Source of the DNA: Novosphingobium sp. 28-62-57
GTDB taxonomy: Bacteria; Pseudomonadota; Alphaproteobacteria; Sphingomonadales; Sphingomonadaceae
Direction of reading: 5' to 3'
Assembly: GCF_002256985.1 (NCBI RefSeq)
Contig: NZ_NCGO01000007.1
Coordinates: 80,475-144,474, forward strand
Length of the DNA: 64,000 nucleotides
The notes below the pieces were generated by a model that was not told the origin of the DNA, did not search any database, and saw nothing but the letters and a program-made list of their open reading frames with translations. Of the stretch, positions 133 to 4,555 are shown piece by piece. The translations under genes and the position numbers were made by a program. How positions within the stretch are numbered: position 1 is the stretch's first letter; each line of letters opens with the position of its first letter.

Positions 133-381
133 TTATTTCTCGCGCAGTTGCTCGATCTCGCGCGAGAGGCGGCGGGTTTCGCCATCATCGGTGGCAATAC
201 GTTCCAGCACTTCAAGCCGCTGACGCAATTCTGCCAGTTCGCGTTCGAGGCTGGCGGTATAGGCAGCATCGGCATTCGTGCCATCGTACCCGCCGCTACC
301 GCGGTACTTGTCGCGGTTCATGCGGATGTTGGCAAAAGCGATGATCGCAGCGATGGCGACCATGGCACTCCAGAAAGACAT
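133..381 (-). CDS. Psp-associated single-TM coiled-coil protein (paralogue A)
   Basis: MSFWSAMVAI start at 381 after GGGGAAG RBS. N-terminal TM, then RQRLEVLERIATD...RLSREIEQLR tail shared with PspC and the neighbouring paralogues. Confidence 0.85.
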   Translation of the reverse strand: MSFWSAMVAIAAIIAFANIRMNRDKYRGSGGYDGTNADAAYTASLERELAELRQRLEVLERIATDDGETRRLSREIEQLREK

Positions 382-410
382 GGCGGAAACTTCCCCGGTG
401 TGTTGGCAGT

Positions 411-683
411 TCAATTGATCTTGGCGGTGCGCAACTGTTCAATCCGCAAGGCCAGATCGCTGTTGTTTTCGGTGGCGATGCGTTCCAGCACGCGCACCCG
501 CTGCTCCAGCCGCTCGGCCTGCGCGGCATATTGCGCGGCCTTTTCAGCGGTTTGCTTGGACAATAGTTCCAGCTCTCGTTCCCGGAAGGCAAGGCGGCGT
601 TTGTACATGTCAGACAGAACGCCCATCACCACCGGCACCACCACCAGCATGAAGGCAAGGCCATAGATGAGGTCGTCACTCAC
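411..683 (-). CDS. Psp-associated single-TM coiled-coil protein (paralogue B)
   Basis: N-terminal TM, AEKAAQYAA, RVRVLERIATE...LALRIEQLR; 4-bp overlap with the upstream gene. Confidence 0.85.
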   Translation of the reverse strand: MSDDLIYGLAFMLVVVPVVMGVLSDMYKRRLAFRERELELLSKQTAEKAAQYAAQAERLEQRVRVLERIATENNSDLALRIEQLRTAKIN

Positions 684-1660: not shown

Positions 1661-2035
1661 TCAGCGCAGCTTCTCGATTTCGGCCGAAAGGCGCGGGTTC
1701 GAGTTGACGTAGAAGCTTTCCACATCGGCCAGACGGCGATCGATATCGCGGAAGCTGGCGCGCACTTCGCGCGCGGTGCGGGCCGGTGATTGGCGCACGC
1801 CCTGCCAGAACTTCTGTTCTTCGCGATCACTGTAGAGATGCGGCGGCTTCTTGGCGGCCAAGAAGCCGAGCACGAAGTAGAGCATGAACGGCCAGCCCAT
1901 CGAGAAGGCCAGGATCAGAAAGCCAAGGCGGATCCACAGGGCATCGACACCGGTGTAATCGGCAATCCCGGCGCAGACGCCCATGAACTTGCCATTGACC
2001 TTGTCACGGTAAAAGCGGGTGCGTGGGCTGCTCAC
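1661..2035 (-). CDS. pspC: Phage shock protein C (envelope stress response membrane protein)
   Basis: FYRDKVNGKFMGVCAGIADY PspC motif, one TM, C-terminal amphipathic helix; follows pspB. Confidence 0.93.
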   Translation of the reverse strand: MSSPRTRFYRDKVNGKFMGVCAGIADYTGVDALWIRLGFLILAFSMGWPFMLYFVLGFLAAKKPPHLYSDREEQKFWQGVRQSPARTAREVRASFRDIDRRLADVESFYVNSNPRLSAEIEKLR

Positions 2036-2343: not shown

Positions 2344-3198
2344 TTAGCCTTCCTTGCCAAGCTGGCGCTTCATCGCTTCCAGCTCTTCGTCAATCTTGTC
2401 CTGCCCGGCCAGCGCGGCAATCTCGTCAGCAAGGCTTGGCTTGGCCGAGCCATCGGCGAGCCCCAACGCATCGGCGCGGCCTTCGGCGTAATCGACGCGG
2501 CGTTCGAGCTGGTCAAAGCGCGCCATCGCCTCGTCCACCCGCTCACTGGCGAGCAGAGTGCGCAGGCGGACGCGGTTTTCGGCGCTTTCGAGGCGAGCGG
2601 CGATGGCGGTCTGGCGGCTGCGGGCTTCGCGCAGGCGGGTCTGCAGCTTTTCAATGTCCAGCTCATAAGCGCGCATCGCATCATCAAGCACGGTGATCTC
2701 GGTGCGAAGCTGGTCGCCCATGTCGGCGGCCTTCTTCTTTTCAACCAGCGCGGCGCGGGCCAGATCCTCGCGGTCCTTTGACAGCGCCAACTGGGCCTTT
2801 TCCGCCCAATCTGCCTGCAGCCGATCCAGCTTTGCCACATGGCGGCCCATTTCCTTCTGATCGGCAATGGTGCGGGCGGCAGACGCGCGGACTTCGACCA
2901 GCGTTTCTTCCATCTCCATGATGATCATGCGGATCATCTTGGCAGGATCATCGGCCTTATCAAGCAAGTCATTGAAATTGGCGGCGATGATATCGCGAGT
3001 CCGCGAAAAAATGCCCATCAGGTTTACTCCGCTGTTGAATTTGGGGGACTTGAAGGAGCCATTGGATGCAGCCCCATCTTGCTGCCTGAATGGCTTGCTA
3101 GCAGAAGCGCGAAGGCGATCCAGTTCCGTGTCAAAGCGCGTGGCGCGGCCACCCTCTTTATCATGCGGCAGGATCGGCGAGAGGTCGCTGGTCATCAT
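2344..3198 (-). CDS. pspA: Phage shock protein A (PspA/IM30, ESCRT-III superfamily); alternative start at 3018
   Basis: MGIFSRTRDII..N.N.LLDKADDPAKMIRMII.EME and ERRVDYAEG motifs. ATG at 3198 overlaps the upstream ORF stop (ATGA); ATG at 3018 has its own GGAG RBS. Confidence 0.95.
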   Translation of the reverse strand: MMTSDLSPILPHDKEGGRATRFDTELDRLRASASKPFRQQDGAASNGSFKSPKFNSGVNLMGIFSRTRDIIAANFNDLLDKADDPAKMIRMIIMEMEETLVEVRASAARTIADQKEMGRHVAKLDRLQADWAEKAQLALSKDREDLARAALVEKKKAADMGDQLRTEITVLDDAMRAYELDIEKLQTRLREARSRQTAIAARLESAENRVRLRTLLASERVDEAMARFDQLERRVDYAEGRADALGLADGSAKPSLADEIAALAGQDKIDEELEAMKRQLGKEG

Positions 3199-3353
3199 GC
3201 AAGCTCACCGGTGATGGCCGCGGTCGAAGCGACAACGGTTGGCACCGAATTCACCTGCTGGCTCAGCGCGAAGCAGCACAGCACCACCATTGCACCAATG
3301 CTGGCAAGGCTGGCGCGTCCGAGCTGGGTGGAAAAGAAGCGGGCGGTGTACAT
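3195..3353 (-). CDS. 52-aa hydrophobic leader protein, first gene of the psp operon
   Basis: MYTARFFSTQLGRASLASIGAMVVLCCFALSQQVNSVPTVVASTAAITGELA*; GAAAGGT RBS 7 nt upstream; TGA overlaps the pspA ATG; below the ORF-track length cutoff. Confidence 0.7.
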   Translation of the reverse strand: MYTARFFSTQLGRASLASIGAMVVLCCFALSQQVNSVPTVVASTAAITGELA

Positions 3354-3407: not shown

Positions 3408-3423
3408 AGCAAGCAGTGTGCCA
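3408..3423 (-). promoter_or_regulatory. sigma54 (-24/-12) promoter of the psp operon
   Basis: Minus strand reads TGGCAC-ACTGC-TTGCT, an exact match to TGGCAC-N5-TTGC; divergent from the sigma54 activator pspF. Confidence 0.9.
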
Positions 3424-3523: not shown

Positions 3524-4555
3524 ATGGATCGTGAAACGCAATTCTTAGGCCAATCGGGCGCGTTCCTTGACGCAGTGGAACGGGCCAGCCGCGCCGCGCC
3601 GATGCGCCGTCCGGTGCTGGTGATCGGGGAGCGCGGGACCGGCAAGGAACTGATCGCCGAACGCCTGCACCGCCTGTCGTCACGCTGGACCGAACCGCTG
3701 GTGACGATGAACTGTGCGGCCCTGCCCGAAACGCTGATCGAGGCCGAATTGTTCGGGCATGAGGCCGGTGCCTTCACCGGTGCCACTCGCGCGCGGACCG
3801 GGCGGTTTGAAGAGGCGGACAAGGGCACGCTGTTCCTTGATGAACTGGGCACGCTGTCCATGGGCGCGCAGGAACGGCTGCTGCGCGCGGTGGAATATGG
3901 CGAAGTAACCCGCATCGGATCGAACAAGCCGGTGCGGGTGGACGTGCGCATCGTGGCGGCCACCAACGAGGACTTGCCGAAGATGGCCGAACAGGGGCGC
4001 TTTCGCGCCGACTTGCTCGACCGGCTGAGCTTTGAAGTGATCACCCTGCCCCCGCTGCGTGTACGCGAAGGGGATGTGGCGGTGCTGGCCGAATACTTCG
4101 GGCGGCGTATGGCGGCGGAACTGCAATGGGACGCCTGGCCCGGCTTTGCGCCATCAGTGCAAAAGGCGATGGAGGACTATCTGTGGCCCGGCAACGTGCG
4201 CGAATTGCGCAATGTGGTGGAACGCGCGGTCTATCGCTGGGATGATGGCACGCAGCCGGTGGGCCATGTGCAGTTCGATCCTTTCGAAAGCCCATGGAAG
4301 CCGGTGGGCATGCCACGGGCCGAAGCAGCGGGCGATGGCGAAGCGGCGGCGCCGGTGCGTGTGGCCGCGCCGACAGCGGATTTGGACGGAGTGAGCGACC
4401 TGCGCGCCGCGGTGGATGCGCATGAGCGCGCGATCATCGAGCATCATCTGGGCCGCAACCGTTACAACCAGCGGCAAACGGCCAAGGCGCTTGGGTTGAC
4501 CTATGACCAGTTGCGCCATTGCATGAAGAAGCATGGGTTGGGGGAGCGGGGGTAA
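3524..4555 (+). CDS. pspF: Phage shock operon transcriptional activator (sigma54 bEBP with no receiver domain)
   Basis: GERGTGKE Walker A, GAFTGA, LFLDE, WPGNVREL, C-terminal HTH LGLTYDQLRH; divergent from pspA. Confidence 0.93.
   Translation: MDRETQFLGQSGAFLDAVERASRAAPMRRPVLVIGERGTGKELIAERLHRLSSRWTEPLVTMNCAALPETLIEAELFGHEAGAFTGATRARTGRFEEADKGTLFLDELGTLSMGAQERLLRAVEYGEVTRIGSNKPVRVDVRIVAATNEDLPKMAEQGRFRADLLDRLSFEVITLPPLRVREGDVAVLAEYFGRRMAAELQWDAWPGFAPSVQKAMEDYLWPGNVRELRNVVERAVYRWDDGTQPVGHVQFDPFESPWKPVGMPRAEAAGDGEAAAPVRVAAPTADLDGVSDLRAAVDAHERAIIEHHLGRNRYNQRQTAKALGLTYDQLRHCMKKHGLGERG

Follow-up and report, generated by a model that had tools for sequence, protein, structure and literature searches.

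The pspA gene of this Novosphingobium genome appears to have two starts, the upstream one adding to PspA an N-terminal extension of 60 residues that carries a short helix resembling the C-terminal tail of PspC. With moderate confidence, we regard a dual-start pspA with a PspC-tail-like docking helix as the best explanation of the observations as a whole. The existence of two PspA isoforms is well supported by comparison of related genomes; the long form is very likely made and functional, and the short form is likely to be made as well. From the conservation of both starts we infer that both proteins accumulate. There is about an even chance that the helix of the extension and the PspC tail bind one and the same surface of a partner. 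A function as a tethered mimic of that tail is plausible on the evidence of the motif, and a role specifically in auto-inhibition or capping is doubtful.

Arrangement of the psp locus

The features of the locus are listed in Table 1. A pattern scan of the window (the whole stretch of DNA that was analysed, 64 kb) for the exact sigma54 promoter core TGGCAC-N5-TTGC returned a single match, which is placed between the divergent pspF and pspA genes at a distance of 405 nt from the canonical pspA ATG at 3018; rpoN is encoded in the genome. The same element was located 256-491 nt 5' of pspA in relatives. The leader ORF, the first cistron after the promoter, begins approximately 45 nt 3' of the expected transcript start. 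The pspA leader contained no known RNA element, the best Rfam match being at chance level (E = 0.81), and a simple scan of its minus strand revealed neither an internal sigma70 promoter nor an attenuator. The free third codon positions described below argue against conservation of this region at the RNA level. At the loci of relatives without the extension (L054-L090), the -12 element of the sigma54 promoter is often CTGCA instead of TTGC (for example, TGGCACGCCTCCTGCAAG), and the promoter lies approximately 250-390 nt 5' of pspA, indicating that a long leader is a trait of the whole family.

Table 1 Features of the psp locus, with positions in the window
Feature	Position	Strand	Evidence or remark
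Paralogue A	133..414	-	ends in RLSREIEQLREK
Paralogue A tail RLSREIEQLR	142..171	-	
PspC	1661..2035	-	
PspC C-terminal tail RLSAEIEKLR	1664..1693	-	
Long pspA ORF, 284 aa + stop, MMTSDL...	2344..3198	-	
Canonical PspA, 224 aa + stop	2344..3018	-	TIGR02977, PF04012, PDB 4whe
PspA C-terminal helix KIDEELEAMKR	2365..2397	-	
Canonical start ATG (MGIFSR...), residue 61 of long form	3016..3018	-	
N-terminal extension, 60 codons	3019..3198	-	predicted disordered except for one helix
Internal Shine-Dalgarno GGAG	3027..3030	-	8-nt spacer to canonical ATG
Helix motif TRFDTELDRLRA, residues 20-31 of long form	3106..3141	-	AlphaFold2 helix; hhalign to PspC tail
RFDTELDRLR, residues 21-30 of long form	3138-3109	-	
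DLSPILP	3166..3186	-	diverged copy of the N-terminal motif [DN]-P-L-[GST]-P-E/I of most relatives (alignments)
Leader ORF, 52 aa, small hydrophobic protein	3195..3353	-	first cistron after sigma54 promoter
Sigma54 promoter core TGGCACACTGCTTGC (-24/-12)	3409..3423	-	exact TGGCAC-N5-TTGC match
pspF, sigma54 activator, divergent from pspA	3524..4555	+	PF00158 (E = 4e-62); HTH_8 domain

The core of PspA

The equivalog model TIGR02977 matched residues 61-281 of the long form over model positions 1-218 of 219 with 279.1 bits (cut-off, 242.95), and matches were also obtained to PF04012 (E = 3.2e-37) and to PDB entry 4whe (E = 1e-37). Alignments to TIGR02977, to PF04012 and to all solved PspA/Vipp1 chains, bar two N-terminally truncated constructs, begin at residue 61-63, and residues 1-60 had no match in Pfam, NCBIfam or the PDB. 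The gene was found in the context of a psp operon, with a sigma54 promoter, pspF, pspB and pspC. These results identify residues 61-284, which end in ...DKIDEELEAMKRQLGKEG, as an ordinary full-length PspA equivalog. The short form has the amphipathic helix alpha0 (MGIFSRTRDIIAANF...; predicted by AlphaFold2 as a helix at 65-81 in long-form numbering) at its very N-terminus, and in the long form 60 residues precede it.

Conservation and distribution of the extension

The upstream region of pspA was compared among 29 other Novosphingobium genomes (PspA 74-97% identical) and 60 genomes from across the genera of the same family. An open in-frame extension of 44-90 codons was present in every member of the genus with sufficient upstream DNA, in all 23 sampled genomes of other genera whose PspA is at least 79% identical, and in one further genome at 73%. 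Coding counts were made on 52 of these genomes (28 of the genus and 24 from other genera), which are related and thus phylogenetically non-independent; at these loci the pspA frame of the extension contained 0 stops in 3,436 codons, compared with 79 and 66 in the other two frames. The tether sequences have diverged beyond alignment between genera, so the lack of stops is not merely inherited identity. In three indel-free close pairs, dN/dS over the whole extension was 0.48-0.60 in frame versus 0.84-2.55 out of frame, and PspA proper in the same pairs gave 0.02-0.12.

Most of the extension is variable, with abundant Ser, Pro, Thr and Gly. It contains a single conserved block, S-R-[LFI]-D-x-E-[VIL]-[ED]-R-L-R, often followed by SPTPTQ. 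Diversity within the helix motif was 0.38, 0.24 and 0.59 at codon positions 1, 2 and 3, the first two being near-fixed and the third variable, and its codons switch between relatives from Ser TCN to AGC and from Arg CGN to AGG or the reverse. These results indicate that the 60-codon extension is real coding sequence selected at the protein level, and the pairing of a variable tether with a constrained block suggests a fast-evolving tether bearing a short constrained helix. The preliminary description of this DNA had named an extension that was unconserved, or that contained stops in relatives, as an outcome that would count against its proposal of two isoforms; in all 52 genomes the extension was open and conserved at the protein level.

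The extension was missing from family members whose PspA is no more than 76% identical, the 73% carrier aside, and these have the leader ORF followed by a non-coding spacer; in other families of the order, 3-40 open codons were found upstream of pspA, and no more. From this correlation with PspA identity we infer one origin of the extension. When a profile of the extension was searched against 1.84 billion representative proteins, 44 matches were obtained, and among the 27 inspected, all that run past the extension continue MGIFSRTRD..., indicating that the module is confined to the PspA of one clade. Four metagenome-derived proteins (P0021, P0029, P0049 and P0053) consist of the extension and PspA followed by unrelated sequence; they resemble assembly chimeras or frameshifts, and their lengths are thus no guide to domain architecture. 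Derivation of the extension from the leader ORFs of outgroups was considered and gained no support, as those ORFs lack the tail motif.

Several subgroups differed in the sequences flanking the helix. In loci L031-L053 and most of L005-L021 the helix runs straight into SPTPTQ, and [DN]-P-L-G-P-E-R stands close to the N-terminus; ASASKP and DLSPILP are the diverged counterparts of these in the genome of the window. In the Novosphingobium subclade L023-L028 the N-terminal part has been lost, and the long protein begins M-SRLD.

Two conserved starts of pspA

The ATG at 3198-3196 overlaps the leader-ORF TGA at 3197-3195, giving ATGA. An NTGA overlap of this kind (ATGA, GTGA or TTGA) between the leader stop and the extension start was found at approximately 40 of 48 loci, and most of the others restart 2-28 nt past the leader stop. 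The leader ORF itself is kept in nearly all relatives across the family, including genera without the extension, in which 30-130 nt separate its end from pspA; in the clade with the extension its C-terminus reads ...VELA* or ...GELA*. It is a 'hypothetical protein' in public records (for example, Saro_1155). Three genomes that lack the leader ORF nevertheless carry the extension and its motif, and the extension thus exists not merely for coupling pspA to the leader. In two of these, L020 (1261-1290) and L026 (1234-1263), the distance between the T of TGGCAC and the extension ATG is 27 nt, which places the start at approximately +1/+2 of the transcript, and in the third, L042, the distance is 52 nt. 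This arrangement implies a leaderless or near-leaderless sigma54 transcript in these genomes. Together, the conserved overlaps and the retained extensions indicate that the upstream start of pspA is under selection. L029, which stands furthest from the rest of the genus, has a 51-aa ORF on the minus strand in another frame, approximately 300-140 nt 5' of the canonical ATG; it lies between the leader ORF, with which it has an ATGA overlap, and the extension GTG, and may represent either a coupled chain of three ORFs or an assembly frameshift.

The canonical ATG was present at 53 of 53 loci. At 12 to 9 bases 5' of it, GGA was found in 53/53 and GGAG in 48/53, within surroundings that are hypervariable. 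In this genome, GGA accounts for 7.7% of Gly codons when long open frames are counted, so its invariance points to selection at the nucleotide level, that is, on a Shine-Dalgarno site; in relatives without the extension the same GGAG element is the working Shine-Dalgarno sequence. These results indicate that the internal start is also under selection. Each of the two in-frame starts is therefore conserved together with an initiation signal, and selection on both is as predicted for a gene with two isoforms. The preliminary description had proposed that long and short isoforms may exist, coupling ATG 3198 to the leader through ATGA and giving ATG 3018 a GGAG of its own; its coordinates and strings are all correct, and the conservation of both starts now lends the proposal strong comparative support.

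Most extension starts have weak Shine-Dalgarno complementarity, below that of the internal site, which suggests that the short form would be the major product and that the long form may be a minor one. The internal Shine-Dalgarno site had a mean predicted probability of being unpaired of 0.29, compared with 0.46 for the surrounding 160 nt (region 2898-3138; 52 loci, with no control set). If it is base-paired as predicted, upstream translation might help to expose it. In the public protein collection, exact 284-aa and 283-aa products were present and the 224-aa product was absent.

Resemblance of the extension helix to the PspC tail

Throughout the genus, PspC has the invariant C-terminal sequence SNPRL[SA]xEI[ED]xLR, a tail that lies within the PspC equivalog model TIGR02978. 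When 51 extensions were aligned with 22 PspC C-terminal halves by hhalign, one match was returned, that of the helix to the tail (E = 2.7e-5, probability 74%). A PspC-tail HMM was built without this genome and run against the genome's 58,352 six-frame open frames as background. In 14 of the 52 relatives the extension came third or higher on this scale, with only PspC and paralogue A above it, and in approximately 27 of the 52 it fell in the top 60; the tail of paralogue A was the second-best match in the genome. The helix of the window itself, which has F for L, D for S and L for I and is among the most diverged, scored at background level (rank 2037). In the opposite direction, the tails of PspC and of the paralogues scored no better than ranks 48-178 of 58,352 with an HMM of the extension. 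The likeness of the extension to the PspC tail is thus strong at the level of the clade and weak for this genome. The preliminary description had noticed the likeness in RFDTELDRLR, which is borne out by the clade alignment and is stronger in the relatives than here.

The pattern R-[LF]-x-x-E-[IL]-[ED]-x-L-R had 3 matches among 5.3 million residues of the six-frame translation of the whole genome, all of them in the psp operon; it was fitted afterwards to those three sites, so this count demonstrates specificity and not independent significance. The tail motif proper, R-L-[SA]-x-E-I-[ED]-x-L-R, is matched by profile at the level of the clade, and the copy in the window has diverged from it. 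The helix comprises residues 20-31 of a soluble PspA, in place of the C-terminal position of the PspC tail, and is therefore a look-alike of that tail and not a member of the PspC family. The C-terminal helix of PspA was tried as another model for the extension: it gave the best local match within canonical PspA, at E = 0.039 and probability 1.3%, and the resemblance to KIDEELEAMKR that had been pointed out earlier is thus not significant.

Co-variation with PspC was seen at position 8 of the helix (E-x-E-[X]-L-R) among loci L001-L029. In all 5 genomes with Ser in the PspC tail, the extension has a residue other than Arg, and where the tail has Lys or Arg the extension has Arg in 13 of 17 genomes. 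This co-change, which represents approximately three independent events, is suggestive of a shared partner. The motif is approximately 10 residues long, charged and amphipathic, and such a composition can arise convergently.

In an AlphaFold2 prediction of the full-length protein, run on a 28-sequence alignment, a helix at residues 21-32/33 (pLDDT approximately 73) lay between low-confidence segments and was followed by the usual PspA helices. The same helix was predicted for the extension alone (pLDDT approximately 84). Judged by pLDDT alone, docking of the helix on PspA gave no signal in AlphaFold2, since confidence was no lower for the extension by itself than in the full-length protein. 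These predictions support an extension composed of one helix on a flexible tether.

Proposed mechanism and alternative explanations

In the proposed mechanism, the PspF/sigma54 promoter at 3423-3409 would yield a transcript whose first cistron encodes the 52-aa membrane peptide. Ribosomes ending at the leader TGA would restart at the overlapping ATG at 3198 to give the 284-aa long PspA, and others would bind the internal GGAG (3030-3027) and initiate at the ATG at 3018 to give the canonical 224-aa PspA. In the 60 extra residues, a single amphipathic helix of 12 residues would be carried on a flexible tether, which across the clade is 10-45 residues long. As the helix has the same motif as the PspC tail, long PspA would most likely join the same partner switching, by either of two routes. 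The helix could compete with PspC by filling the site on PspA that binds the tail, either within one subunit or on a neighbouring one, such that long PspA would resist recruitment by PspC or cap assemblies. Alternatively, it could dock on the other partner of the PspC tail, probably PspB-type proteins; Flores-Kim and Darwin reportedly found in 2015 that the C-terminal domain of PspC binds PspB while the Psp system is off. A further-reaching reading, which we consider somewhat unlikely, is that long PspA is a natural fusion of PspA to the PspC docking helix which engages the surface used by the PspC tail, that translation of the leader peptide versus initiation at the internal Shine-Dalgarno site sets the ratio of long to short form, and that this ratio sets the threshold of the Psp response.

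Several features would also fit an extension that is translated solely as a side effect of the coupling between pspA and the leader ORF, as in a uORF or in ribosome delivery along a long, structured leader, with a functionless peptide: an NTGA overlap conserved in this way is a usual sign of coupling, the leader extends over 256-491 nt, and most of the extension evolves fast (dN/dS approximately 0.5). However, coupling cannot account for the amino-acid conservation of the helix with its free third positions and codon-family switches, and the three leader-less genomes retain both extension and motif. Where relatives lack the extension, a plain non-coding spacer follows the leader ORF, so coupling needs no in-frame extension, and we consider this account very improbable. 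It is also quite unlikely that only the long protein is made, with a PspA N-terminus that is simply longer and an internal GGAG and ATG that are a relic or a pause site. Public annotation, which lists the 283/284-aa form alone, the protein-level selection on the extension, and the internal Shine-Dalgarno site being predicted more paired than its surroundings would all agree with that account, yet GGA occupies the Gly codon at every locus despite its rarity in the genome, and the ATG is invariant. The GGAG, moreover, is held at a fixed 8-nt spacing in hypervariable sequence across approximately 24 genera, where a relic would have drifted, and it is the same element that serves relatives without the extension as a working Shine-Dalgarno site.

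A further alternative, which we consider somewhat unlikely, accepts both forms and takes the likeness of the helix to the PspC tail as convergent. The extension might then block or modulate alpha0, crowd the lumen of the PspA rod, contact PspF, or act as a cleaved pro-peptide. The alpha0 helix is thought to require access to the membrane, and the extension, which is joined directly to alpha0, might simply impair it. In a preprint, alpha0 is described as binding the membrane and lining the lumen of PspA rods (bioRxiv 10.1101/2025.06.13.659447), and binding of the PspA C-terminal domain to a second site on PspF has been reported (PMC6003685). Convergence would accord with a motif that is short and of common coiled-coil composition, with the background-level score of the window's own copy against the PspC-tail HMM, and with the lack of a docking signal in AlphaFold2. 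Against it, the profile-profile match to the PspC tail was the sole hit, many genera have extensions that score above all non-psp frames of the genome, and PspC tails with Ser-8 always occur with a non-Arg position 8 in the extension.

Significance and comparison with known systems

The literature search returned no report of a dual-start pspA, of a PspA extended at its N-terminus or of psp in Novosphingobium, and two surveys of Psp diversity make no mention of such an extended PspA. The clade-wide N-terminal module, the identity of its motif with that of the PspC tail, the two conserved starts and the coupling to a leader peptide therefore appear to be unreported. The long ORF as an annotated protein is already in public records and is not new. 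Those records give the long form only and family models begin at residue 61, a caveat for annotation. A whole clade keeps a PspC-tail-like helix tethered to PspA, and the long and the short form each have a start signal of their own. If the further-reaching reading is true, the helix fused to PspA would be a partner switch within one gene and a handle for mapping the recruitment of PspA by PspBC. The pspA of this clade offers a simple genetic system for the hand-over of PspA by PspB and PspC, from PspF to the membrane, in which the contact surfaces are poorly mapped.

Like PspA of Escherichia coli and Yersinia enterocolitica, the protein described here is a full-length equivalog encoded behind a sigma54 promoter, with a divergent pspF and with pspB and pspC downstream. 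It differs from these in its 60-aa N-terminal extension with a conserved helix, in a second, upstream start that is coupled to a leader ORF, and in a 5' leader of approximately 380 nt; in enterobacteria the promoter is followed directly by pspA. The extension shares a 10-residue core with the PspC tail (R-L-D-x-E-V-E-R-L-R in the clade, R-L-S-x-E-I-E-[KR]-L-R in the tail). The helix of PspC forms the very end of a membrane protein, C-terminal to its TM segment and coiled coil, whereas that of the extension is near the N-terminus of a soluble protein and is followed by a disordered tether, and the resemblance is a likeness rather than established common descent.

Terminal helices that act on a related core are known from ESCRT-III subunits, which are auto-inhibited by a terminal helix folded back on the alpha1-alpha2 hairpin, and Vipp1 carries an extra C-terminal helix as a lineage-specific appendage. 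Those helices are C-terminal and have been studied experimentally, whereas the predicted PspA extension helix is N-terminal and resembles the tail of a partner protein rather than PspA's own alpha5 (E = 0.039, not significant). By analogy with them, this short helix, near one end of the protein and joined by a flexible linker to a PspA/ESCRT-III core, could occupy the hairpin groove and control assembly.

Two isoforms produced by in-frame internal starts are known for ClpB (long and short), CheA (CheA-L and CheA-S) and IF2 (alpha and beta), for which both products have been seen experimentally and in which the N-terminal module of the long form alters partner binding. As in these proteins, a single ORF has an upstream start and an internal Shine-Dalgarno site and start, and the long form bears an extra N-terminal module. 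Unlike them, the PspA isoforms are deduced from conservation, and the upstream start would be fed by termination and reinitiation from a leader ORF. If both forms are made, PspA would be added to the few bacterial proteins that are regulated via alternative in-frame starts.
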